Below, piece after piece: positions 41,885 through 54,334 of a stretch of 64,000 nucleotides of DNA. The stretch's first letter is position 1, and the number at the start of each line of letters is the position of its first letter. The notes under the pieces were generated by a model. The model saw only the letters and a list, made by a program, of their open reading frames with translations, had not been told where the DNA came from and did not search any database. The DNA is from a virus. Its lineage: Duplodnaviria > Caudoviricetes. The stretch spans positions 6,301 through 70,300 of the IMG/VR virus record IMGVR_UViG_3300047539_000043. One strand, 5' to 3'. A program made the position numbers and the translations under genes.

Positions 41885-41899
41885 TTAACCGCCTCTTAA
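41885..41899. promoter_or_regulatory. CtrA-type box (perfect)
   Basis: TTAA-ccgcctc-TTAA (TTAA-N7-TTAAC on minus), in the intergenic gap upstream of the head operon. Confidence 0.72.
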
Positions 41900-41934: not shown

Positions 41935-42600
41935 TCATGCAAATTCCCCAGCCCTAACGTATGTTGATCCGCAAACCAAACCATTATCCACGATGAGATC
42001 TATCCCGGTACAAAACCGGGACGCATCTGACGCCAAAAACATGACCGCGTCAACAACGACGTCCAGTCCCGCTGTCAAATGGCCTGGAGAAACAGAATTA
42101 ATGCGAACACCAAAGCGGTTTAGCTCGGGAGCCAAACTATACGTCAAAGCAATCAGGGCGGCTTTAGATACAGCATATGGCACACGACCATCACCGAAAC
42201 CTCGATAGGCGGCAACGGAAGCAATATTTATGATACTGCCACTAGGTGACATCCTAGGAAGCACATGACGAATATTGGTTACCGCGGCGACGACATGAAG
42301 ATTGAATTGGTGCATGAACGCAAATGGGTCTGTAGTCAGTATACCGTCGTAGCGGCCGGCCAATCCCGCGTTGTTAACAAGAACGTCGATATATCCAGGA
42401 GCTCGCTTAATAGTTCGAGCAATATCATCTGGGACCGTCACATCGGCTTGAACATAAGTTGCCCCAGTGTCGGCCGCAATCTTATCGCCAAGATCCTGTC
42501 GTCGACCATTGAATATAACGCAAGCGCCTTCAGCTGCGAGCCTTCTGACCAGGGCCTCGCCAATACCACTGGTTCCCCCAGTTACGAGTGCGGTTTTCAT
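41935..42600 (-). CDS. short-chain dehydrogenase/reductase (SDR)
   Basis: TGGTSGIG, DVLVNNAG, IINIAS, YAVSK, INSVSPG; the substrate-binding loop looks shortened. Confidence 0.92.
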   Translation of the reverse strand: MKTALVTGGTSGIGEALVRRLAAEGACVIFNGRRQDLGDKIAADTGATYVQADVTVPDDIARTIKRAPGYIDVLVNNAGLAGRYDGILTTDPFAFMHQFNLHVVAAVTNIRHVLPRMSPSGSIINIASVAAYRGFGDGRVPYAVSKAALIALTYSLAPELNRFGVRINSVSPGHLTAGLDVVVDAVMFLASDASRFCTGIDLIVDNGLVCGSTYVRAGEFA

Positions 42601-42743
42601 GGTTTTCTCATTTCTTCGTTCAGCCTATGCCTGTTGCGCTTCTTCCAGCGGCTGCATGCCGCGGCATGCCGGACGGCATAGCCCGGCCGTCGCGTGTAAC
42701 TCTTAAGATACGCTCGTTGCTTCGCGGGGTCTTTATAGGGCAT
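42597..42743 (-). CDS. 48-aa Arg-rich ORF resembling an HNH N-terminus (not in ORF track)
   Basis: MPYKDPAKQRAYLKSY...RWKKRNRHRLNEEMRKP; TGATG and ATGA coupling at both ends. Confidence 0.55.
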   Translation of the reverse strand: MPYKDPAKQRAYLKSYTRRPGYAVRHAAACSRWKKRNRHRLNEEMRKP

Positions 42744-43438
42744 CACAAGTCCTTGTAGTCGCGGGCGCCGCGATCAAGGACCAACACGTTGTGCAGGTTG
42801 CCCTGATACGTTGTGTGGCCCCATTCGTCCGGAGCAATGACACGATCTTTCTCGACGACAAAAACCTTGTGACCTGCCCGCAAGGTCTGCTGCGTGAGAT
42901 TGTTAGGGCCATGCTCAAAATTAAGCGCCCCGGCTCTGGATGGGTCTATCCAGTCGAATTGGCTTGCAATCGTAGCGTAACGTACACGATCAATCAGGAA
43001 CGCCGTATCTCGTATGTGAGGGGTCGCCTCACGAGAGCCGGTGCAGCCAACCAGCTCAACTCTGAACCAACCGAATACATCATGCAGCTTTTTCAGCCAC
43101 ATGTCATGCATTATCTCGCTGGACGAGTTGAGCGGACATATGATGTCTTCATTGACGTCGTCACAAATATCGGTACACCCGGCAGTAGTTTTCGAATCCA
43201 GATGCTTTAAAAGTTCAACCGGCTTCAATGGCGCAAATTGATCGCGCGCCCAGTCCAAATCTTCCGGGGTCGCAAACTCCTTGTAGAAAATATAAAGCTT
43301 GTGGGCAATCCCGGGCGAATATTTTCGATAGGACTCGACAAACCTGGGGAACCGCGCCCGCCAATTTGGGGGCCCAGAGCCAACGTCGCTGCCACGCGCA
43401 GTATAGACGACACCAATGTCAGATTGGGCGAGCGGCAT
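42743..43438 (-). CDS. putative glycosyltransferase-like protein
   Basis: IGVVYTAR...F..SY..Y..G..HKL, LNSSSEI, LVG.TGS...PHIR.TAFLI; context within the glyco island. Confidence 0.5.
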   Translation of the reverse strand: MPLAQSDIGVVYTARGSDVGSGPPNWRARFPRFVESYRKYSPGIAHKLYIFYKEFATPEDLDWARDQFAPLKPVELLKHLDSKTTAGCTDICDDVNEDIICPLNSSSEIMHDMWLKKLHDVFGWFRVELVGCTGSREATPHIRDTAFLIDRVRYATIASQFDWIDPSRAGALNFEHGPNNLTQQTLRAGHKVFVVEKDRVIAPDEWGHTTYQGNLHNVLVLDRGARDYKDL

Positions 43439-44024
43439 GGTGGGCCCCCATCCAGTAGGGGTCGTAAACGCCAGTCGCTTTACTCAGATGCATCGTGATC
43501 CAGTCTTGCCGATACGGTTGCTCAATACTCTGATACCGGGAGTCGTGGACCGGGGTCACGCCGGCTGCGCGCAATACACTGCCAACCCATCGATCTTCAT
43601 AATCGAGAACAGGTTTTGCGTCAGCAACAATCTCCATGGCGGGCTTGCTCAACCAATACCCGGATCCGCCGCCAATATGACCCTCATCTGCCTGAAAACC
43701 GGTGTAATCCAATTTCTCATAGCCGGAAGCAAGCAGCCGCGGCACGAGGATGTAGCAGTCGGTAGGCATATTAAACACATGATCATAGCCATGCTCCAGG
43801 GCCCACTGAACGCCCAGATGTGTCTTAAACACACACTCCATAAAGCCCGTGGGAGCGTCAACGATGATCTCGTCCGGCGCGCATGCGTCTTTATAGTCTC
43901 GGTCGTAGACAAACATATGCGGGATCAAATGGCCCCACTCCTTGAGATAGGTTACGCGGCAGACATCCTGGTCCCCGCGGGCCTTATAGCCCTGATATGC
44001 TGCAAGCAGAATGATCGGGTTCAT
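43419..44024 (-). CDS. GT31/Fringe-like glycosyltransferase (putative)
   Basis: KT...VQWAL..GYDHVF..PTDCYI, GGGSGYWLS..AM, YEDRWVG. Confidence 0.7.
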   Translation of the reverse strand: MNPIILLAAYQGYKARGDQDVCRVTYLKEWGHLIPHMFVYDRDYKDACAPDEIIVDAPTGFMECVFKTHLGVQWALEHGYDHVFNMPTDCYILVPRLLASGYEKLDYTGFQADEGHIGGGSGYWLSKPAMEIVADAKPVLDYEDRWVGSVLRAAGVTPVHDSRYQSIEQPYRQDWITMHLSKATGVYDPYWMGAHHAARPI

Positions 44025-44749
44025 TTGGCATCCCAACATCGCAATAACGGGACCTCTACCACACTTAACTTGGATGCGTCAAGCCACAAGGAAAACATGC
44101 GCTCAGATATGTACGCCATAGGCCGCGCAATATACGCCGCATCATGCGCGTCAAGAGACATTATACACGGCCGCATGGCTTCGGCATGAGTCCACCACCA
44201 CTCCATGTAGCGCCGAAAGACAGGCGCGCGCGTCACGAAATGCATGGGGCGAATGAACGGCGTCTGGGGGTGAAAGACGCCGGCTTCCTTCATAACGTCT
44301 TCAAAAACTTCCCAGTCCATCGGTGAACGAGACCGTTGAAAATCTACCCCCATGTCAATGTTGTAGGAGCAATCAAATGGGGGCGCCACGATCATATCGC
44401 ATTCTGCCATGAGCTCCTGAATGCTCTGGCCGTCATATTGGGACAGCCACGTTTGATATTCGCGAAACTCTTTTAGTGGTGTATCATGCCATTCTGGCTT
44501 TTCATACAAAAGCGGCCGGCGCAAATCGAGGAATTTGCGGTATCCATGGAACCCGATGATGTCCAGGTCGTCGCGGTTCTTCCAGATCCAATACGGCGCT
44601 CGCATATCGGCGTACGTTGTCAAGTCCGGAATACCGTCCCCAATGCGATCGTGCAGCCCGCAGACAAACTCTTTAGATATTCCGCCGAACGGTGCCTTCT
44701 GAAGTCCGACATGATTATAGTTGATGGAATAAATCTCGATCTTACGCAT
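44021..44749 (-). CDS. DUF4422-like glycosyltransferase
   Basis: YWIWKN.DDLDIIGFHGYRKFL, HFVTRA.VF..Y..WW, R.MAYISERMFSLWL. Confidence 0.72.
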   Translation of the reverse strand: MRKIEIYSINYNHVGLQKAPFGGISKEFVCGLHDRIGDGIPDLTTYADMRAPYWIWKNRDDLDIIGFHGYRKFLDLRRPLLYEKPEWHDTPLKEFREYQTWLSQYDGQSIQELMAECDMIVAPPFDCSYNIDMGVDFQRSRSPMDWEVFEDVMKEAGVFHPQTPFIRPMHFVTRAPVFRRYMEWWWTHAEAMRPCIMSLDAHDAAYIARPMAYISERMFSLWLDASKLSVVEVPLLRCWDAK

Positions 44750-45422
44750 AATTTCCAAACTGGCTAGCGTTATGATCCGCCTGATACCAACGGAACGGCG
44801 TCTTTCGCAAATATGGCTCAACGCGCGCCATGGTGTTAACTTCAAAAGTCACACGTTTCATTAACCGAATGTATAGACGTGCCGTTGCTTGTACACACTC
44901 TACCAGCTGCCGCATGTTATCCCGGGGCACGATCATCAATGACCCCAAAAACCGCCAGCTTGGATACTCGTCTATCGGTTCCGAATTGGGCGCCCAGCAT
45001 CCTGGAAAAGCAAAATCTCCTTTCCGAATGCGGCTGAGAAAACCGCGAATGACCTCCGCACTCATTCCTGGCTGAGAAAATATCCCGTAGTCTATCCAGA
45101 TAAACGTGTCCGATTCACTATCCTTAGCAGCAGCGCGCGCGAGCCACGTAAACTTTTCATATTGCACGCAATGAAACTCTAAGGAATTTTTGCGTGGGTT
45201 ATCACCTTTGCTCCAAGTCAATGGCGGCTCCATAGGAGGGAGCGTTTCAAGAAATTGTGTCAACCACAATTCTGGTATCTTGGAATAATAAACAGCCAGC
45301 GGGTGGTCACCCAGCGCATCACTTAGCTTATACCCCAGCTTGCCATAGGTCTCCGCGGATCGAGGGTGGTCTGGCAAGGGAACATAGCCGGTAACAACGC
45401 GGGTTTTAGCTAATTTACTCAT
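44742..45422 (-). CDS. HtrL/WlaTC-like glycosyltransferase (putative)
   Basis: VVTGY, VQYEKF.WL..AA.....DTFIWIDYGIF, WRFLGS..IVP, TFEVN. Confidence 0.65.
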   Translation of the reverse strand: MSKLAKTRVVTGYVPLPDHPRSAETYGKLGYKLSDALGDHPLAVYYSKIPELWLTQFLETLPPMEPPLTWSKGDNPRKNSLEFHCVQYEKFTWLARAAAKDSESDTFIWIDYGIFSQPGMSAEVIRGFLSRIRKGDFAFPGCWAPNSEPIDEYPSWRFLGSLMIVPRDNMRQLVECVQATARLYIRLMKRVTFEVNTMARVEPYLRKTPFRWYQADHNASQFGNYA

Positions 45423-45970
45423 CGATCCACCGAATCACTTCCTCCGAATCTACGGTCGCCAGGCGCGCCTCGCAGTCCTTGAAGCCATAGGAAATAATCA
45501 AGCGCTTGCCGTCCGGATGCCAGCACAACCCCATCGCATACTCGATGGTCTTTTCGTGGAACCCAAAAGGCTTGCTAATCTTGACGATGTTAAAAGCTGC
45601 GTCCCATGACACGAACCTGTGCAATAATAGTCGCGGGTTGAGCCCCAGGAATCTGCCTCGCCTCGTGGACGATCGCAAGATACCCTTGATGAAATGGGAT
45701 CACTTGGCGAACCGCCACCAAGAGCACCTATATCCCGTGGGCACTCAAATTTCAAATTAGACCATGGCCATCCGTTATTCGTCATTACATCTATACATCC
45801 AAGCGATGCGAATGATCAAGGATCGGCATCCAATTCTTCTCACAAGCACGCGGCTCATGCACCAAACGCTTCATGTTTTCCAGATACCATTAGCGGTCGA
45901 TCATCAACACAGACTTGCTCCGGCAAGCCGTCCTGCCGCAGCTGGCGCACAGTCGCAGAAGCAAAAAGAA
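45415..45970 (-). pseudogene. multiply frameshifted C-terminal beta-propeller (glycoside hydrolase-like) region of the GT2-TPR gene
   Basis: Consecutive homologous-looking blocks SATVRQLRQDGLPEQV / EPRACEKNWMPI / WMYRC / FECP..IGALGGGSP / VIPFHQGYLAIVHEA / HRFVSWD..EYAMGL lie in alternating frames. Could be sequencing error. Confidence 0.6.
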
Positions 45971-47428
45971 TATGCCGACATGGAACAAACGCATATCCTC
46001 CAGCCCGACAACGAGCGGATACGCCGGGGGATCTGGCATCACGTCTTCATGGTCCAATTCCTGCAAATGCGGATTATTAAAATCAACGTCAGCATCTAGA
46101 TCCTCTCCGAAACGATAAAGGAAATTGCGTGTATTGATCGGGTTCGTGTTGTTGACCGACCCGTCCGCGAGCCCACGGATCAGATAGCGGCCATATTCAT
46201 CAATTCGATAGTTAACCGTACGGATGATCGCCAAGAGTTCGCCGTCGCGATTGATGATCGATGGGTTGAGCGGGATCCAGTTCTCTTCCGGCGTAAAATC
46301 GATCTTCTTCCACTCGAACGACGGGCAGACCTCTTTCAGCATCGGATAATAGTGGAAGATGTTTGTGCGGTTGAGCTCGCGAGAGAACCCATACGGGCCC
46401 TTCTTCAACGTGAGCTCGTTACAAATGTCAAAACCCTTAGCACGCTTATCCGGTACATAGAACGCTGCTATTGCAAACTCGTCTTTGCTGCCACAGTCAT
46501 AGGCATAGTCGTTCACAAAGAGAGCGTCTTTGGTGTGCGGGATATCCATGGCACGCTCGGCATAGAGTACAGCGAGAGGGTTCTGGCCTTTCTCGCGATA
46601 AAATTTGGCAAGTTCCCAAAGCGGTTCGACACGGTGCGGGCGCATGTTATACGCGGCTTGCATGTTGTACAGATACCCGGCATGGTCTCCCATCATGCCA
46701 AGACACTGGGCGTAGGACAATTGCGCGTGCCACACTTCCTCGTCCCATCCGCCTGCCTCGACCCGGCGCTTGTACCACTTGGCGGCCTTCTCTGGCTTAC
46801 CGGCATCGCGAAGAGACTGAGCAAGATAGTACATATAACGTTCATTCGGCTTCTTCTTTGCCTTCTTATCTGCCTCCATTGCGTCCTTAAGCAACTTGAT
46901 GTCGCGCTTGAATTTCTCGGGCCGGTTCGAACCGTCCGCATGATCTACGAAGAACGCCTTCTCAGGTGAGATACAGCCGCCGGTCGGTAGGTTACAGTAT
47001 TCATGAGTAACCCCCATGTATTGCCCTGTTGTTCCGGCTTTAACAAGCCGGCGGTTCTGATACTTGAGCGTCCCCGCAACCTGGTACATGTCGTAGGATT
47101 CCCCGGTCACACCATCAAGCCACGTTGGATCGAGCACCTTCAATTCCATATCCGCATCGATCAACAACTGGTAATCATAAGGAATAGGGGCGTGTCGACC
47201 GGCCTCCAGGGCGACGTTACGCGCCTGGGACCAGTCATGAAACGGGGCCTTCCCGATCAAACCTGGGATCTTCAGGTTGTCAAAGAACCGCGTAATTTTA
47301 TCAATCGTATCGTCGGTCGAGCCAGTATCGACAATTACCCATGAGCTTATGTGCGGCGCAACGCTTTCCAACATTCGTAGAATGCGCGCGGACTCATTCT
47401 TCACAATGCAATTGAGCTGCAGCTTCAT
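45890..47428 (-). CDS. GT2 glycosyltransferase with TPR repeats and start of a beta-propeller domain
   Basis: LNCIVKNES..I.RMLES, IVDTGSTD.T, F.DWSQARN.AL, LLIDADMEL, GVTHEY, RY.YYLAQS.RD, LNPSI, GLEDMRLF. Confidence 0.9.
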   Translation of the reverse strand: MKLQLNCIVKNESARILRMLESVAPHISSWVIVDTGSTDDTIDKITRFFDNLKIPGLIGKAPFHDWSQARNVALEAGRHAPIPYDYQLLIDADMELKVLDPTWLDGVTGESYDMYQVAGTLKYQNRRLVKAGTTGQYMGVTHEYCNLPTGGCISPEKAFFVDHADGSNRPEKFKRDIKLLKDAMEADKKAKKKPNERYMYYLAQSLRDAGKPEKAAKWYKRRVEAGGWDEEVWHAQLSYAQCLGMMGDHAGYLYNMQAAYNMRPHRVEPLWELAKFYREKGQNPLAVLYAERAMDIPHTKDALFVNDYAYDCGSKDEFAIAAFYVPDKRAKGFDICNELTLKKGPYGFSRELNRTNIFHYYPMLKEVCPSFEWKKIDFTPEENWIPLNPSIINRDGELLAIIRTVNYRIDEYGRYLIRGLADGSVNNTNPINTRNFLYRFGEDLDADVDFNNPHLQELDHEDVMPDPPAYPLVVGLEDMRLFHVGIFFLLLRLCASCGRTACRSKSVLMIDR

Positions 47429-48654
47429 CAGAAAATCTCCAAATCTGGAATAACCACCACGAAGCGCCCGCCCCACTCCCGGACGCGATCCCCAATCCGG
47501 CCGGCGATTTCTTCCTTCAAATTCCACGGGAACAGCAACACATAATCCGGCTTATCAATAAACAGGTGGTCCTCGTGGAAAATCGGTATCTGAACGCCCG
47601 GGATATATTTGCCCTGCTTGTACGGCGTCGTGTCCACCACGTACGGCAGCATATCCGTTCCAACGCCACAATAGTTCAGCAACGTCGTCGCCTTAGCGGG
47701 GGCACCATATCCCCCCACTGTGGAACCGGCACGATGCGCGTCTATCAAAAAGTCCAGCAGATCGCACTTAGTTTCGGTTACCCGTCTCGAAAAACCGGCA
47801 TATGTGCGGTCCTTGTCAAATCCAAAAAGTACTTCTTCCTTCAAGATCTCATATCCGCTACCGTCAGACTCACGAGGATCCCCAAAATGTGCAACAACCA
47901 GCCGTAGAGAACCGCCCAGGTTCGGCAACTTTTCAACTCGGACTACCTTGATGGCGTGTTGCCCGAGGATATCCATCGCCGTGTGCAGCCAGTAATACGA
48001 AAAATGTTCATGATAGATCGTGTCGAACTGCCGGTCCTTGATCAGGTTCAACAGATGCGGGAACTCGATCGTCGCGGTGCCGTTCTTCTTCAACAGGATC
48101 CTTATGCCTTCCACGAAGTCGTGAACGTCGGGCACATGAGCAAATACGTTATTGGCAATGATGAGATCCGCGCCGTCGCTTTGCGCTATAAACGTGGCCG
48201 TCTTCACACTAAAGAATTCGACAAGGGTAGAAACGCCTTTATTCTGGGCGATGAGAGCGACATTCGCAGAGGGCTCTACCCCCAGCACCTTGATGCCGCG
48301 CTTCTGGAAATACTGCAGAAGATAGCCGTCGTTGCTGGCTATTTCCACTACAAATGGATCTTTGCAAAACGCCAGCTCTGCGAACATGCTCTCAGCGTAG
48401 TGCCCGCATTGCGCCAAAAATCCCTTCGAGTTCGAAGAGAAATAGGCATAATGCTCGTTGAAAATCTCTTTCGGCGTAACAATCGCCGGCAGCTGCACGA
48501 GCCAGCATTTCTCACACACGTAGGCGTGCAAGGGATAAATCGCCTCGCCTTGGTCGACCTGATTCTCATCCAAGAGCGCGTTGGAGAGCGGCGAGCGGCC
48601 GAGATCGGCAAAGGTCAAGGATAGGGGAGAACTACAGTTGCGGCACAAATGCAT
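47428..48654 (-). CDS. NDP-sugar C-methyltransferase (class I SAM)
   Basis: CRNC...DLG.SPLSN, YPL..YVC..C.LVQL, VVEIASNDGYLL, FDTIYHEHFSY, GYGAPAKATTLLNYCG. Confidence 0.92.
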   Translation of the reverse strand: MHLCRNCSSPLSLTFADLGRSPLSNALLDENQVDQGEAIYPLHAYVCEKCWLVQLPAIVTPKEIFNEHYAYFSSNSKGFLAQCGHYAESMFAELAFCKDPFVVEIASNDGYLLQYFQKRGIKVLGVEPSANVALIAQNKGVSTLVEFFSVKTATFIAQSDGADLIIANNVFAHVPDVHDFVEGIRILLKKNGTATIEFPHLLNLIKDRQFDTIYHEHFSYYWLHTAMDILGQHAIKVVRVEKLPNLGGSLRLVVAHFGDPRESDGSGYEILKEEVLFGFDKDRTYAGFSRRVTETKCDLLDFLIDAHRAGSTVGGYGAPAKATTLLNYCGVGTDMLPYVVDTTPYKQGKYIPGVQIPIFHEDHLFIDKPDYVLLFPWNLKEEIAGRIGDRVREWGGRFVVVIPDLEIF

Positions 48655-48702
48655 AGGGGGACCTCATCGATCCCCCCTGCATACCACCCGGCCTTCCAAG
48701 TG

Positions 48703-48951
48703 TCAAGCTGGTCCGGTATACCCAGAAATATATACCGTCTCAAAGCCGGGACTAAAGGGGCCGGCCCCGGTCGCGGCTGCGATAACTGTTGGGTACTCGT
48801 TGTGAAGGGGATTAGCCGCAGGACCAGTGGCCTGCAGCATAGTCTTCCATTGGTGCTGCGGATGTGGGGCAGTAGAAATGTTAACCGTCTTGCACCGCGT
48901 GGCGCGATCGACCGACGAGTTAGCGATAACCCGCACCATTTTGTTAGACAT
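48703..48951 (-). CDS. small protein with TGP motifs
   Basis: [12 protein letters not shown]...ATGP...YTGPA; TAATG overlap. Confidence 0.6.
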   Translation of the reverse strand: MSNKMVRVIANSSVDRATRCKTVNISTAPHPQHQWKTMLQATGPAANPLHNEYPTVIAAATGAGPFSPGFETVYISGYTGPA

Positions 48952-49784
48952 TATCCAGCGCCCGGGAACCCTGGCGATACGAAGATCGCTGTGTTTCCAC
49001 CAGACGGTTGCCACCACACGGCTCCCGGTACCTGCGGGTCAACCGTCGGCGGGAAGAAGACCGTGTTGGCGACCGGACCCATCGGGCCATCCGGACCACC
49101 CTTTTGCGGGATCGCTGCTAGAGCATAGCCGCTGAGACCGGTCTGTCCGGTATAGCCAGAGTATCCGAAGCCAGGCGCGAGGCCCGCGGCCCCCCAATAT
49201 TGACCGTACGGCCCTGTTACGCCAGTGCCGGCGCCGGTGGCATACCAATTGTATTCAAGCGTACCGGTGAGGCCAGTAGGCCCCGTAGGACCGGTCATAT
49301 TGCTAGCCCCTTGCGGTCCAGTCACGCCAGTCACGCCCGTAACACCCGTAGGCCCAGTTCCTGCGCCATACGTAGGCCCGGTCGGACCCGGCGAATTGGC
49401 GGGGCCTTGAGGTCCCGTAACACCAGTAGCGCCCGTATTACCCGTCGCGCCGGTTGGGCCCAGCGGACCAACAGGACCGCTAATGCCCGGATAACCGGCA
49501 GGGCCAGTGACGCCCATGCTGCCAGGTCCTTGCGGACCAGTCGGGCCAAGATAACCAATGACGGCCCCCACCAACGTGCCGCCAGATATCAATCGCACAT
49601 ACAAGCCGCCGGTCGGACCAGTCGGACCAGTAGAAGTGGCAGCGCCAGTCAAGCCCGTAGAGCCGGCTGGGCCAGTCACCTGGCCGGTGTTGATAGCATG
49701 CGCAACCTGCAGCATGACGGCTGACAATTGATTGTCATCGTAGCTGTCAGGCGCTTCATTCGGCAGTTCGATATACGTCGCCAT
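48951..49784 (-). CDS. GPT collagen-like protein, paralogue 3 (putative head fibre)
   Basis: [20 protein letters not shown] repeats, [16 protein letters not shown]. Confidence 0.85.
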
Positions 49785-49786
49785 GT

Positions 49787-50398
49787 TTATGTCCCCGGCC
49801 CAAGCGAGATCACTAGCGTGGTGCCAGTAGCCCACATTTGCCCAGTCACACCCGGGCTAGTTGTTGGAGGATTGAAAATCGAAAAACTGCGACCCGTCGG
49901 ACCAGCGTTCCCCGTAACACCCGTCGGACCCATAACACCTTGCGGACCAGGCGGCCCTGTTAGGCCAATCAAGCCGGTCGCGCCAGTTGGACCAGTATTC
50001 CCGACATACGTACCGGGAGGACCTTTAGGACCTGTGACACCAGTCTGGCCCGTAAAGCCTGTCAAGCCCGCGGGACCAGTAGGACCTTGCGGACCAGCAG
50101 GACCAGGCAAACCATTAGGACCAATGCCACCCGAGAAACCTTGAGCGCCCGTTATGCCAGTTACGCCGCGCGGCCCTGCCGGCGGACCCGGAGGGCCAGC
50201 GGGGCCTGTCAGCGAGCCTCCTGTGGGCCCTGTAGGCCCGGTTACATTAGCAACGCCAGTTGGACCAGTGATACCCGTAGGACCACCAATGCCGCCCGCG
50301 TTAACGGCGGCAACAAGCTGGCCAAGAACCGCGCTGATCTGTTGCTGGTCCAGATTACGGATCTCAGGAATTGGGCCCAACGGAAACGGATTTGCCAT
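49787..50398 (-). CDS. GPT collagen-like protein, paralogue 2
   Basis: [22 protein letters not shown] repeats, [15 protein letters not shown]. Confidence 0.85.
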
Positions 50399-50399
50399 C

Positions 50400-51089
50400 T
50401 TATGTCCCCGGTCCCTTCGATACCATCAACAAACCCGGCGATTGCGTAGATCCGGTCCCATATGGTGAAACTGGACTAAACCAAACCAGACCCGTATTGC
50501 CCGGGCTCGAGGTCGGCGGAATGAAAAGTTGTGCTGTCGCGCCCGCGTATCCGGCCGCGGCCGGTAACCCTGACATCGAGAATGTTGGTAAACTGATGCC
50601 CGTAGGCCCAGTAGAACCCGTCGGACCAACGAACCCAATGTACCCGCGGGGGCCGGTCAATCCGGTATATCCGGTGGTTCCTGTTGGGCCTGTGAGCCCT
50701 TGCGGACCAGCAGGACCAGACGCGGTACCTGTGACGCCTGTCGGGCCTGTATTGCCGCCGCCGGGGCCCGTTACGCCCGCGATACCCGCCGGGCTTCCGC
50801 CCGTGTTACCGGTGTATCCTGTCTGGCCAGTAGAACCCTGGGGACCCTGATAACCTAAAGGGCCAGCCGCGCCGGTTGATGTCCCGCCCGGGTTCGGTCC
50901 CGTGGGACCGGTAACGCCGGACGATATCGGACCAGCCGGACCTGTCGGTCCTGTACCGGGCCCAGTGAAGCCTGTCGGGCCTGTATTACCGCCCGGAACG
51001 CCGCTGAGAAGCGCCGAGACTACTTGCGCAAGAATCAAACCCCGTTGCGAATGGTCATATTGGAAAGATTGTGTTATGCCAGCGGCCAT
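50400..51089 (-). CDS. GPT collagen-like protein, paralogue 1
   Basis: [22 protein letters not shown] repeats, [15 protein letters not shown]. Confidence 0.85.
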
Positions 51090-51133
51090 TGAAAAAACCC
51101 TTGCAAGGTCTAGATCACGTTATCGGCAGCAAG

Positions 51134-51148
51134 TTACTAATTACTTAA
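51134..51148. promoter_or_regulatory. CtrA-type box (1 mismatch)
   Basis: TTAC-taattac-TTAA, upstream of the collagen/glyco operon. Confidence 0.5.
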
Positions 51149-51921
51149 GACCAGAACGCGGCCGGAAGATTGTTGAAAATGTCGGGCGGCAAAATGGAGG
51201 TCCGCGGCTCGAATACGACCTTCTTTTTCAGGGAATGTAAACCCGGGGTACCTAAGGCCTCGTCGAACACGGCAGCGCCAGGGATGTCCTCGATAGCCTC
51301 AAAGTCGTACTCAAACTCCGGCAGTTCCAGTTTTTCGTGAATCTGTTCAAGTGTAAGCATAGGATCTCGAGCTAGATCGTCGTATTTAACCATAATCAAA
51401 CGCTTGCCATGGAGCCCGTAATAGGCCTCCTTGGTGGCGTTTAGGGAATAGCCGACCACACCGGTTGCGGGGGCCATTAGCATATCGACCCGCCGATATA
51501 CCGTTGCACCTTGCTCAAGCCCAATAATGGTGCTCAATCGCGTGGGGTGCTTCTGCAGGAGGCGCTCAATGCTGTCCACTACGGCGACCGGATCGCGCAC
51601 GCAGCAGAGGACATAGGCGTCAGGGAAAAGTTCAAGAAGGAGAGATATTTGTCCGCACCACAACCGGTTGGAGTCGAATATGACGTCGGCTTCAATGTCC
51701 GCATAAAATGCAGTGAATAGCCCCCGTAACATACGCACGCGCTGATCGTCGTCAATGAACCAGTGCGATTCGTTATCGCCGGCCATGTTCTTTCGCAGGT
51801 TGACAACGCATTGCCCTAATGGGCTTTGAATACTAGCATGGAAGCGAGAGTTCTGGCGAAGGATCGCCGCCAGCAGCGTCGAACCAGCACGAGGCATCCC
51901 AGAAATAAAATGATAATCCAT
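51145..51921 (-). CDS. sulfotransferase family protein
   Basis: 5'-PSB motif FISGMPRAGSTLL..IL.QN; 3'-PB motif CVRDP..VVDSIE; VKYDDL..DP. Confidence 0.9.
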   Translation of the reverse strand: MDYHFISGMPRAGSTLLAAILRQNSRFHASIQSPLGQCVVNLRKNMAGDNESHWFIDDDQRVRMLRGLFTAFYADIEADVIFDSNRLWCGQISLLLELFPDAYVLCCVRDPVAVVDSIERLLQKHPTRLSTIIGLEQGATVYRRVDMLMAPATGVVGYSLNATKEAYYGLHGKRLIMVKYDDLARDPMLTLEQIHEKLELPEFEYDFEAIEDIPGAAVFDEALGTPGLHSLKKKVVFEPRTSILPPDIFNNLPAAFWS

Positions 51922-51958: not shown

Positions 51959-54334
51959 TCATTCAACCCCCGGCGATATGGGGAGTGCATTGGGGCCCTT
52001 TGAAGTTACTACGTTCGTGCGGGGCGCGAGCCCTTGAGGGCCTTGTCCGCCTCCGGTTAAGGTTTTTGGCTGCGTGCCAGATGCCACCCTAGCAGCGTTC
52101 TGCATGTTTGGCAAGCCCCCCGAACGCGGAGGGCCTGGTATCGGAGGGCCCCCAGGACCTGCTGGGCCTGCTGGGCCGCCGCCCTGAGGCGGTATGCCCA
52201 TTCCCGGCTGAGCCGCTGGCGTACCAATGTGCGTGGGGGCCCCTTCGGGCATGCCAGCTCTAGTAGCTAACACTCCCGCTGTAAGCTCCGAAGCAATCTT
52301 CTGTACGCCTGCCTGGACTCCTTGCTGAACTCCTTGCTCCACCTTTTGCTGTAGGGCTTGCTGCTGCGGATTTTGTTGCTGAGCCCGCTGGGCGGCGTCC
52401 ATCTGCGCCAACGTTTCGTCGTTTGGTACAATCTCATCGCCAGACAACCCAAGTCCTTGAGCCACTTCCCGAAGGACCATACCGCGACCCTTGATACCGA
52501 TAATATGAGCGTCCATCGGGTTCGCGGTAGCTTGCAGAAATTCCACCTGGCGCTGTCGTTGCGTTTCTTTTTGAATGGCAACCTGAACTCCATCGACGCT
52601 AACCTTCTCTTCCCCAGTGAGCAGCCCGGTCGTATCTGTGAGCATGATCAGATCGACAAGCTGCAGGAGCGCAGGCTCCATGATGTCGTTATCGATGTTA
52701 GCTGAGACAGTTTGAAGGATTTTAGAACTGTTACCCATCAACATCGCCAAGCCACTCGCGGTGCGCCCAGCCCCACCAGCGCCAGCTTGTCCGCCGACAT
52801 ATTTCGGGATCGCCGACACGTCGTCCGCTATAGAGACAAATTCCTGATACGCGCTCACCAACGCCTGGGTATTGCTCGTCGGCATGAAGAAATCGATCGG
52901 CGGCCGGGCGTTGTTCCCCACCGGGTCGTTCCGGGTGTGCCAGCGCTTCCATGGGTACAAATCCTCTCCGGTCTCGTCGGGGCTCAGTCGGTCATCGTTA
53001 ACCACGACTTGAGGTCCCGAGGATATACTGAGGTTATTAACCAAACCCCGAAGTGTCGCGTTCGACACAATTTGTAGATCATCAAGCATATCTGTAAGTC
53101 CATTACCAATGGGCGTACCCGGGACCTTCTCAAAGCTAGTAATATAGTACGGAGGCCGTTGCCGAGGACTAGGGGACAGCTGGCATTTAATAACGTGCGA
53201 ACCAATGAGCCATGCCTGTACATGGTAATCACGCAACTCGTCGGGTACAGCGAGACCATAATCCTGAAGCATTCGTCCTTGGATGTTGCCATTGAACGCC
53301 ATGCACGCTATTAGCTTGGATCGGTTCCAGGCGGGGTTTTCTTTGTTCTCAAGAACAGCTCGCTCGGCATCAGTAGTATCCCAAAAATCATATAACCCAC
53401 CACGACCATATTCGTCAAGAACAGCTCGGAGCTCGTCTTGATTATAGCCTGGGAGATCGAGGAGATCGTTGAGTTCTGCTCGGGTGAACTTGATTTTTTC
53501 GATGATGTCAGCATTGGCGAAACTCGATACCCCCGGCGTCCACCAAATATCGAACGGTGCCACTCGGCGCCATACGAGCTTTGGCTTCTGCACAATGGTT
53601 GGCTGACCGCCGGCTGGCGGCCAGACGACTTCTGGAATGATCTTGACTTCCGGTCCACAGATAACACCAAACGGGAAGGTTGGCAAGTCGACAAGAAACT
53701 CCGCGAACGCATGATAGAACATGCCCTCGCGCAGGATGTCCTCGATCTTGTTGTCCGAGTCCTTGGCCTGCTGCCCGGCTTTCTTCTTGGCAGCGTCAAG
53801 AGCACTCTCGATCAGTGCCGTGCGCCGCGCCTGCTCGTCTTCCGGATCCGGCGGCTTGCCCTGCGTTTGGGTCACCTGCTGGTTCTCCAGTTGCAGCAGG
53901 GCGTCTATGTTTTGCTGGACCGAGTCCGGGATCTTCGGCGAAGACGGGGGCTTGATGCCCCACGGTCGGGTGTCTCCAAGGTAAATATCTCGAAGCAGCG
54001 AGCTGGCCGCTCGACACTTCTGGGCGATAATGCGTGCGTAGACCTCAGAACCTCCGAAACGTCTAATTTCTCGTAGCTGATTAGCATCATATTGGCCATT
54101 AAAAGTCCTCAAAGCTACCAGCAGGCGTTCGGACCAGCCCGCCGCCGTGTTGCGGTGGTTGCGAAAAATCTCCCATAATCCGCGTATATATCCGGCTAAT
54201 TCCTGTGGAGATTGGGCCGTTTGGGCCTGATTTGCCTGCGCCGTCTGGTTTGCGCGGTCGGCTTCTTGCTGCTGCAGAACGTCTTCAGGGATAACTTGTA
54301 GTACGCCTTGAGTTCCTAACGCCTGATCACTCAC
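51959..54334 (-). CDS. portal protein
   Basis: GGAG SD before GTG 54334. SEVYARII.QKCR.A, PWGIKP, PY.ITSFEKVPG...GNGL.D, NNLSISSGPQVVVN, RTASGLAMLM. Confidence 0.88.
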   Translation of the reverse strand: MSDQALGTQGVLQVIPEDVLQQQEADRANQTAQANQAQTAQSPQELAGYIRGLWEIFRNHRNTAAGWSERLLVALRTFNGQYDANQLREIRRFGGSEVYARIIAQKCRAASSLLRDIYLGDTRPWGIKPPSSPKIPDSVQQNIDALLQLENQQVTQTQGKPPDPEDEQARRTALIESALDAAKKKAGQQAKDSDNKIEDILREGMFYHAFAEFLVDLPTFPFGVICGPEVKIIPEVVWPPAGGQPTIVQKPKLVWRRVAPFDIWWTPGVSSFANADIIEKIKFTRAELNDLLDLPGYNQDELRAVLDEYGRGGLYDFWDTTDAERAVLENKENPAWNRSKLIACMAFNGNIQGRMLQDYGLAVPDELRDYHVQAWLIGSHVIKCQLSPSPRQRPPYYITSFEKVPGTPIGNGLTDMLDDLQIVSNATLRGLVNNLSISSGPQVVVNDDRLSPDETGEDLYPWKRWHTRNDPVGNNARPPIDFFMPTSNTQALVSAYQEFVSIADDVSAIPKYVGGQAGAGGAGRTASGLAMLMGNSSKILQTVSANIDNDIMEPALLQLVDLIMLTDTTGLLTGEEKVSVDGVQVAIQKETQRQRQVEFLQATANPMDAHIIGIKGRGMVLREVAQGLGLSGDEIVPNDETLAQMDAAQRAQQQNPQQQALQQKVEQGVQQGVQAGVQKIASELTAGVLATRAGMPEGAPTHIGTPAAQPGMGIPPQGGGPAGPAGPGGPPIPGPPRSGGLPNMQNAARVASGTQPKTLTGGGQGPQGLAPRTNVVTSKGPNALPISPGVE

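Follow-up and report, generated by a model that had tools for sequence, protein, structure and literature searches.

What do enzymes for sugar transfer, sugar methylation and sulfation do between the portal gene and the head genes of a phage, and on what do they act? The question is raised by positions 41935-51921 of the DNA analysed here, a 64-kb stretch (the window) of the 70.3-kb IMG/VR virus record IMGVR_UViG_3300047539_000043, which CheckV rates as complete. The locus (the island) consists of 13 co-oriented minus-strand genes, mostly overlapping, between the portal gene and a head operon with a CtrA-type box. It encodes three collagen-like proteins, a glycosyltransferase in which a GT2 domain is joined to TPR repeats and to a GH130-like β-propeller (the lead enzyme), a sulfotransferase, a sugar C-methyltransferase and several smaller enzymes and candidates. 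From gene content, domain folds and gene neighbourhoods we put a probability of roughly 60% on the reading that these enzymes modify the phage's own collagen-like fibres post-translationally. Glycosylation of the fibres is well supported by gene context, as far as genes alone can tell.

The gene string itself is largely as the original prediction described it from the letters and open reading frames (ORFs). Pfam, NCBIfam, PHROGs and PDB searches of the window proteins find every gene type that it named on the minus strand, with some corrections of family labels, and two small coupled ORFs of 82 and 48 codons are added to its list. From the portal gene to the gene for the short-chain dehydrogenase/reductase (SDR), eight of the 13 junctions either overlap or leave a gap of no more than 2 nt; the number rises to nine when the ancestral frame of the lead glycosyltransferase is counted, which agrees with the expected stop/start coupling. 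The enzymes are located within the structural region in the same orientation. A Kyte-Doolittle scan of the real frames with 19-residue windows shows no island enzyme that reaches 1.6 or more, and the predicted absence of transmembrane segments from the enzymes holds. The coordinates of all features are summarized in Table 1.

The lead enzyme shows a composite architecture. Its N-terminal domain matches PF00535, its fold matches GT-A enzymes, and the D-A-D motif that, like many other residues, is invariant in 36 homologues is present in the window copy. Matches to Pfam TPR_14 and other TPR families follow, and helical repeats occupy residues 174-362 of the structural model. As it stands in the window, the GT2+TPR ORF covers positions 45890-47428. 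The intact orthologue from a related locus (L005) gives an AlphaFold (AF2) model with a mean confidence (pLDDT) of 93. In Foldseek searches with this model, the closest structures to the N-terminal GT2+TPR half are the peptide S-glycosyltransferases SunS and ThuS (E 4e-15), and the C-terminal half matches, over its whole domain, the GH130 five-bladed β-propeller of β-1,2-mannobiose phosphorylases (E 1e-10). A G-x-E-D-x-R motif is kept across the lead-enzyme family. The architecture had been given before as GT2-TPR(-propeller); GT2 and TPR are confirmed, and the propeller end is broken in the window by about nine insertions and deletions (indels), which are discussed below.

The gene for this enzyme keeps close company with genes for collagen-like proteins. 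In 25 of 26 related phage loci, collagen-like ORFs are directly upstream of it. In the window, collagen-like genes 1-3 are upstream in the same string, with the 82-aa ORF (orf82) and the C-methyltransferase gene between them and the lead-enzyme gene. The same association is found in bacteria, where we examined 80 loci with homologues (Mesorhizobium, Bradyrhizobium, Bacillus, Niallia, Acidovorax, Sphingomonas, Streptomyces, Chlamydiae and others). In 40 of them a strong Gly-x-Thr collagen-like ORF is found no more than 2 kb away; only 9 have one at a greater distance, in flanks with 2.4 times as much DNA. Among the Firmicutes, homologues next to collagen-like genes (L105, L107, L108 and L109) share 33-36% identity over ~330-360 residues. 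The possibility that the bacterial loci are prophages of this phage type was rejected, because they are without portal or capsid homologues of this phage. The closest cellular homologues come from Mesorhizobium and Bradyrhizobium (L084-L087), where a full-length GT2-TPR-GH130 homologue with 39-42% identity is located 1-1.5 kb from divergent giant collagen-like genes, whose frames of 1044-1661 codons hold up to 393 Gly-x-Thr triplets. In these loci the phage module has its counterparts among bacteria. A GT2-TPR homologue with 41% identity is also observed in Tunturiibacter phage Tunturi_5 (L168, PP885688.1, 33-38 kb), a jumbo phage with an acidobacterial host. Its neighbours, genes for four paralogous Ser/Thr-rich proteins of ~285 aa and for a large tail fibre, are not of the collagen-like type, and the GT2-TPR family may also serve fibres of other types.

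The three collagen-like proteins of the island are built alike. In the alignment they share an N-terminal segment of ~30 aa and a C-terminal P-P-T-x-x-P...G-x-x-W motif; Thr makes up 13-15% of their residues and there is almost no charge. Protein 3 carries a Tyr-rich insert ahead of the common C-terminal motif, with six Tyr in one 40-aa window. The three pair one to one with the three L005 orthologues, which suggests three distinct chains. Their matches to PHROG 'tail fibre' families reflect only the repeats. We regard them as candidate head or neck fibres, probably trimeric, on the virion surface. A precedent is SPP1 gp12, a short trimeric collagen-like phage protein that decorates the capsid (PMC7602432); the likeness is by description of the collagen-like type, and gp12 differs in having no known glycosylation. 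Six Gly-x-x repeat proteins are counted in the whole window, in line with the predicted minimum of six GPT-repeat proteins. Within the island three or four had been proposed. Three are found, and the presumed fourth is the 82-aa protein, which has no collagen repeats. The coding stretch of this protein is kept in L004, L005 and L006 and absent in L007, and a Pfam search with it gives no match. Possibly it helps to assemble or anchor the collagen-like fibres.

A bacterial system with the same elements is known from spores of C. difficile. SgtA consists of a GT-A domain (aa 1-260) and four TPR repeats (aa 262-358) and is encoded beside bclA3; in vitro it transfers β-O-GlcNAc onto Thr (and Ser) of the GPT repeats of BclA3 (PMC7157674). 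The phage enzyme matches this published architecture in its soluble GT-A plus TPR build and in the position of its gene beside a Gly-Pro-Thr collagen-like gene. SgtA differs in its size (358 aa), in the absence of a GH130-like domain and in its target, a protein of the spore exosporium and not of a virus. SunS and ThuS (PDB entries 7msp, 7msn and 7msk), the best fold match of the N-terminal half, are likewise peptide-modifying enzymes in which GT-A is combined with helical repeats. However, the target of SunS is a Cys of a small bacteriocin, and the score of the phage enzyme against the NCBIfam SunS equivalog (TIGR04195) is 26 bits against a cut-off of 350, so it is not a member of that family and only the fold is common. 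The C-terminal half resembles GH130 β-mannoside phosphorylases and mannoside synthases, with the difference that in the phage this domain is fused to a putative protein glycosyltransferase.

Among phages, Freeman et al. reportedly described in 2023 mycobacteriophage-encoded glycosyltransferases that modify the phage's own structural proteins. That system resembles the one proposed here in that phage enzymes act on structural proteins of the same phage. It differs in its targets, which are capsid and tail-tube subunits of actinobacteriophages, and is not known to involve sulfation, C-methyl sugars, a TPR enzyme or substrates of the collagen-like type. By analogy, the window module would work like SgtA with BclA3 and, more loosely, like glycosylation of mycobacteriophage virions and chlorovirus capsids. 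Three features are specific to the window module: a conserved sulfotransferase, a 3-C-methyltransferase accompanied by GT111-like and GT31-like enzymes, and the disruption of the GH130-like domain. A literature search for work linking SgtA-like enzymes, collagen-like proteins and phages found no paper.

Conservation separates an old core from variable accessory genes. A portal search gave 80 related IMG/VR loci, onto which the window proteins were mapped. Relatives with portal identity of at least ~60% carry portal, one to three collagen-like genes, a GT2-TPR-propeller enzyme of ~665 aa, the 226-aa protein with its start overlapping the stop of that enzyme, usually a small methyltransferase, and head genes, and this core order is kept across dozens of them. 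The collagen-like genes, the GT2-TPR-GH130 enzyme and the small GT-A enzyme are therefore an old feature of a large uncultured clade. In distant relatives, including isolated Rhizobium phages, portal and head genes are within 0.2-2 kb of each other. The earlier description of the locus as an inserted island applies to the accessory genes and not to the core, which is ancestral to the clade and no recent insertion. The genes that vary among relatives are those for the sulfotransferase, the C-methyltransferase, the DUF4422 protein, nucleoside diphosphate (NDP)-sugar dehydratases and epimerases, and O-methyltransferases; the same slot in relatives holds sugar O-methyltransferases as well as NDP-sugar dehydratases and epimerases. 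G001, the genome nearest to the window (capsid 96% identical), keeps the gene order of the latter, with an extra dTDP-glucose-4,6-dehydratase-like gene and with an extended-SDR gene in place of the classical SDR gene of the window.

The sulfotransferase carries a 5'-phosphosulfate-binding (5'-PSB)-like motif, G-M-P-R-A-G-S-T, and the loop G-x-P-R-x-G-S-T is invariant in 23 homologues. Its phage and bacterial relatives number in the hundreds and are annotated simply as sulfotransferase, and a viral search gave 367 relatives; the phage sulfotransferases mentioned in the literature are incidental annotations only. About 20 further loci of the same clade have, in this order, portal, sulfotransferase, three collagen-like genes, GT2-TPR and the small GT-A enzyme, so that the sulfotransferase gene stays just ahead of the collagen-like genes. 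Distant viral homologues are found in unrelated contexts, not beside collagen-like genes. In two loci of other phages (L219 and L220) a sulfotransferase homologue (36% identity) and a C-methyltransferase-like gene (27%) are 1.6 kb apart and collagen-like genes are absent from the surroundings; the pairing of these two enzymes may recur independently.

The call of an NDP-sugar C-methyltransferase is solid. Three domains are observed in one chain, a four-Cys zinc domain (Cys 4, 7, 47 and 50), a domain that binds S-adenosylmethionine (SAM) and a C-terminal domain, and the PDB matches span residues 3-407: D-mycarose 3-C-methyltransferase (E 1e-76), 'Sugar 3-C-methyl transferase' 5t64 (E 1e-71) and TcaB9 (E 3e-66). 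The phage enzyme thus resembles TylC3, TcaB9 and KijD1 over its full length. Those enzymes work in antibiotic deoxysugar pathways. The phage enzyme is without an accompanying 2,3-dehydratase or aminotransferase, so its substrate is probably a simpler NDP-4-keto-6-deoxyhexose.

Further glycosyltransferases follow the lead enzyme. The 226-aa protein is kept after it in 17 relatives. Its model has a GT-A fold, and the best structure in the PDB is A64R of chlorovirus PBCV-1 (Foldseek E 2e-5; VIA Z 13.1, rmsd 3.2 Å over 165 residues), likewise a small soluble GT-A enzyme of a virus, whose deposition names it a capsid-protein glycosyltransferase. A64R differs in that it shares only 13% sequence identity with the phage protein, belongs to a virus of eukaryotes and makes up a single domain within a larger protein. 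No Pfam family, HtrL_YibB included, matches the 226-aa protein at E values up to 5, which leaves its former HtrL-like label without Pfam support, and a profile search against the PDB gives nothing significant (E 0.27-0.42). The DUF4422-like label of the next protein is borne out by PF14393, well above its cut-off. This protein matches the N-terminal (GT111) domain of WbbM (6u4b) with E 2e-7 over only 55 residues; DUF4422 corresponds to GT111, a UDP-Galf transferase family (PMC12269835).

The substrates, the reaction order, the sugars, the location of the fibres and the timing of expression we infer from these genes. In the proposed pathway, the three short Gly-x-Thr collagen-like proteins would be the substrates, and gene position suggests a decoration of head or neck. 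The GT2+TPR enzyme would start O-glycosylation at the repeat Thr (or Ser), by analogy to SgtA on BclA3. The glycan could then be extended by the GH130-like domain (intact in relatives, broken here) and by the A64R-like GT-A, GT111-like and GT31-like enzymes. The 3-C-methyltransferase and the SDR, as a ketoreductase, would make a C-branched 6-deoxyhexose donor from host-made NDP-4-keto-6-deoxyhexose. The sulfotransferase would take sulfate from host 3'-phosphoadenosine-5'-phosphosulfate (PAPS), and either the glycan or the Tyr-rich part of collagen-like protein 3 would receive it.

Several observations weigh against this reading. The full lead enzyme is absent from every isolated phage of the phage collection, and conservation of the neighbourhood within one phage clade reflects shared ancestry and not independent events. 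Two of the later enzymes are leads only. The 201-aa protein had been called GT31-like, and the nearest ESM Atlas clusters lean this way (score 0.98; PF01762 in 26-87% of cluster members); Pfam gives E 0.18 only, and we treat it as a lead and not as a firm assignment. The 231-aa protein, formerly 'another GT-like gene', is present as described, and its glycosyltransferase hints are weak: none of 67 homologues has a Pfam domain, Glyco_tranf_2_5 appears at E 0.001 in 2 of 22 members, and the profile finds no relative in the PDB. The SDR is a generic FabG-like enzyme; the G001 gene at its position belongs to the extended-SDR NDP-sugar epimerase/dehydratase family. The whole 70.3-kb phage has no nucleotidyltransferase (PF00483), no homologue of the G001-type 4,6-dehydratase and no kinase for adenosine 5'-phosphosulfate (APS), so nucleotide sugars, 4-keto-6-deoxyhexose and PAPS must come from the host, and the pathway is not self-contained as had been claimed. 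Finally, with the GH130-like domain disrupted, some of the pathway may no longer work in the window phage.

Two other explanations of the island as a whole have to be considered. The enzymes could remodel the host surface (lipopolysaccharide, exopolysaccharide or capsule) in infection, blocking superinfection or aiding release, with the collagen-like genes as mere neighbours. GT111 (WbbM) and the 3-C-methyltransferase family are indeed known from polysaccharide and natural-product sugar pathways, the enzymes depend on host nucleotide sugars in any case, and the distant sulfotransferase homologues of other phages have no collagen-like neighbours. However, the island genes include no membrane segments, lipid-carrier transferase, flippase or polymerase; the lead-enzyme family tracks collagen-like genes in phages and in bacteria; and the genes are translationally coupled to collagen-like genes within the structural region. 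We consider host-surface remodelling distinctly improbable. The alternative that the module is decaying, with a truncated lead glycosyltransferase and an island that is partly or wholly non-functional cargo, draws on the break in the GH130-like domain. Relative to the intact L005 gene, the window copy has ~9 indels (-1, +2, -1, +1, +2, -1, +1, +2, -1) within ~370 nt at ~45630-46000, which create in-frame stops; a different frame then reopens for the last 87 codons. None of the 20 complete orthologues of at least ~650 aa is interrupted (intact length ~665 aa), and the lead-enzyme gene is the sole broken gene in the comparison of the window with G001. P0035 and P0108, considered as independent copies of the broken gene, are contig-end fragments with ~78% identity and were rejected. 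Against decay, the GT2 and TPR parts are intact regardless of the cause of the disruption, as are all 12 other genes, which are still coupled. The out-of-frame pieces retain ~75% amino-acid identity to L005 (estimated from the alignment; 68% for the first in-frame alignment), a poor fit to slow neutral decay that suggests either an event of very recent date or an error in the local assembly. Decay of the module is unlikely on this balance, and modification of the phage's own fibres is the explanation that we prefer.

Within that preferred explanation the target of the sulfotransferase is a separate matter. Sulfation of a glycan had been proposed; the sulfotransferase stands, and the glycan is now one option, the nearest solved relatives by profile being protein tyrosine sulfotransferases (TPSTs). 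The enzyme could instead act on Tyr residues of the fibres, especially in the insert of collagen-like protein 3, and not on sugar. In the search of the family profile against the PDB, human TPST1 and TPST2 are best (E 1e-11 and 4e-9), ahead of other matching sulfotransferases. Phages with the sulfotransferase have three collagen-like genes rather than one or two, and the third product is often Tyr-rich (L169-L201): the maximum number of Tyr per 40-aa window has a median of ~3.5 with the sulfotransferase and of 1 without it (Mann-Whitney p 4e-4, a value that overstates the case because the loci are related). On the other side, PF13469 is a broad family, and in the printed alignment non-acidic residues of the phage family face the G-E-E-T stretch of TPST1, which presumably holds the catalytic Glu of TPSTs. 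The collagen-like proteins contain Tyr but hardly any acidic residues, and hardly any of these are close to the Tyr; known TPST and RaxST sites do have acidic neighbours. Glycan and tyrosine are both candidate targets; a tyrosine target is somewhat unlikely in our estimate. We also propose, as a tentative and rather doubtful extension, that a widespread uncultured clade of alphaproteobacterial-type phages builds sulfated virion fibres, in which near-uncharged collagen-like proteins would gain negative charge as sulfotyrosine or as a sulfated glycan with C-methyl sugar. If true, such a virion would be the first bacteriophage particle with sulfate on it, and the enzyme possibly the first encoded by a virus to sulfate tyrosine in a viral protein.

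If the phage does modify its own fibres, glycosylated collagen-like fibres, so far described from bacterial spores and giant viruses, would be common in ordinary soil and freshwater phages, and those of the window would additionally bear sulfate and a branched sugar. Adsorption to hosts could be affected by a coat of this kind, as could the stability and aggregation of particles and the way in which grazers or immune systems recognize them. Studies of phage protein glycosylation are mainly based on mycobacteriophages, and the module offers a compact enzyme-substrate pair that is testable in E. coli. For the glycoengineering of collagen-like materials, candidate tools are the GT2-TPR-GH130 fusion and the sulfotransferase of the phage.

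Table 1. Features of the island and its boundaries, in window coordinates
Feature	Position	Strand	Basis or remark
Perfect TTAA-N7-TTAA (CtrA-type) box	41885..41899	.	Island/head-operon boundary
Short classical SDR, 221 aa, candidate sugar ketoreductase	41935..42600	(-)	PF13561, PF00106
48-aa basic ORF, M-P-Y-K-D-P-A-K-Q-R-A-Y start	42597..42743	(-)	Overlaps preceding gene's stop and SDR start
231-aa protein, phage-restricted family	42743..43438	(-)	Weak glycosyltransferase hints; Atlas lead
GT31/Fringe-like candidate, 201 aa	43419..44024	(-)	ESM Atlas; Pfam PF01762 E 0.18 only
DUF4422/GT111-like glycosyltransferase, 242 aa	44021..44749	(-)	PF14393, E 3.5e-16, 60.2 bits vs cut-off 25
Small soluble GT-A glycosyltransferase, 226 aa	44742..45422	(-)	AF2 pLDDT 94; start overlaps lead enzyme's ancestral stop
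Disrupted rest of GH130-like domain	45415..45994	(-)	Three-frame translation; tblastn with intact L005 protein; DNA alignment
Lead glycosyltransferase, intact part: GT2 (GT-A, D-A-D), TPR, first third of GH130-like β-propeller	45995..47428	(-)	Pfam GT2, TPR
NDP-hexose 3-C-methyltransferase, 408 aa	47428..48654	(-)	PF08421 (E 2e-22), PF13489, PF08484 (E 2e-52)
Promoter-like TTGACA, ~17 nt, TAnnnA, then hairpin	48655..48705	(-)	Invariant TTGACA and flanks in four to five aligned relatives
Conserved 82-aa protein	48703..48951	(-)	Start overlaps stop of collagen-like gene 3 (TAATG); DNA alignment
Collagen-like protein 3, 277 aa from ATG at 49784	48951..49784	(-)	PF01391
Collagen-like protein 2, 203 aa	49787..50398	(-)	PF01391, E 6e-14; gap to collagen-like gene 1 is 1 nt
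Collagen-like protein 1, 229 aa	50400..51089	(-)	PF01391; Gly-x-Thr-rich, almost uncharged
PAPS-type sulfotransferase, 258 aa	51145..51921	(-)	PF13469, E 2.5e-19, 70.8 bits vs cut-off 27; PHROG 27463
Portal, 829 aa	51959..54448	(-)	Weak Pfam SU10_portal match; 55% identity to Rhizobium phage RHph_TM27A portal; upstream module boundary

Expression signals are observed at the island boundary and inside it. The window has four perfect CtrA-type boxes against 0.45 expected. CtrA-type boxes had been noted at 41885 and at 51134. The former is perfect, and 8 of 17 relatives have a perfect box at the same boundary; the latter has one mismatch, belongs to a class with 15 sites in the window against 9.3 expected, and is absent in relatives. 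A CtrA promoter ahead of the collagen-like genes was rejected, relatives having no perfect box inside their islands. The original interpretation is partly supported: it keeps its soluble enzymes and its association with collagen-like proteins, and loses self-containment, recent insertion and the 51134 box. The hairpin at 48655-48705 has a G6/C5 stem and encloses the ribosome-binding site of the C-methyltransferase gene; together with the TTGACA element ahead of it, it may serve as an internal promoter and in the control of translation, judged from the DNA alignment. Scans of promoter and terminator consensus sequences stay at chance level.

The isolated phages nearest to the window phage are Rhizobium phages of the RHph_TM27A group, and Alphaproteobacteria are its likely hosts. 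In RHph_TM27A the portal gene is followed by three small genes, a gene for a protein of ~340 aa and the capsid gene, with nothing else between. G+C content is 0.51-0.53 in the enzyme part of the island and mostly 0.55-0.62 in most of the remaining window. A megablast search of the island against isolated phages and an Rfam scan of 41-55 kb give no match, and exact-pattern scans for a near-identical contig among viral and metagenome contigs found none. The islands of L022 and L027 contain Endonuclease VII genes, so the 48-aa ORF of the window may be a remnant of a mobile nuclease gene. The last ~150 residues of the portal protein (window 51959-52400) form a Q/G/P-rich extension of low complexity; in distant relatives without an island the portal match stops at about residue 680, and the extension may be absent there. 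Two relatives carry other cargo at the portal-head junction: a 5.6-kb gene set that includes a protein with Ig-like (He_PIG/PKD) domains in L061 (8352-13929), and a 662-aa lectin-type (Laminin_G_3) protein in L035 (6915-8903). Proteins with Ig or lectin domains are typical decorations of virion surfaces, and with such cargo at the same place the junction appears to be a general slot, or hotspot, for accessory genes of the virion surface.

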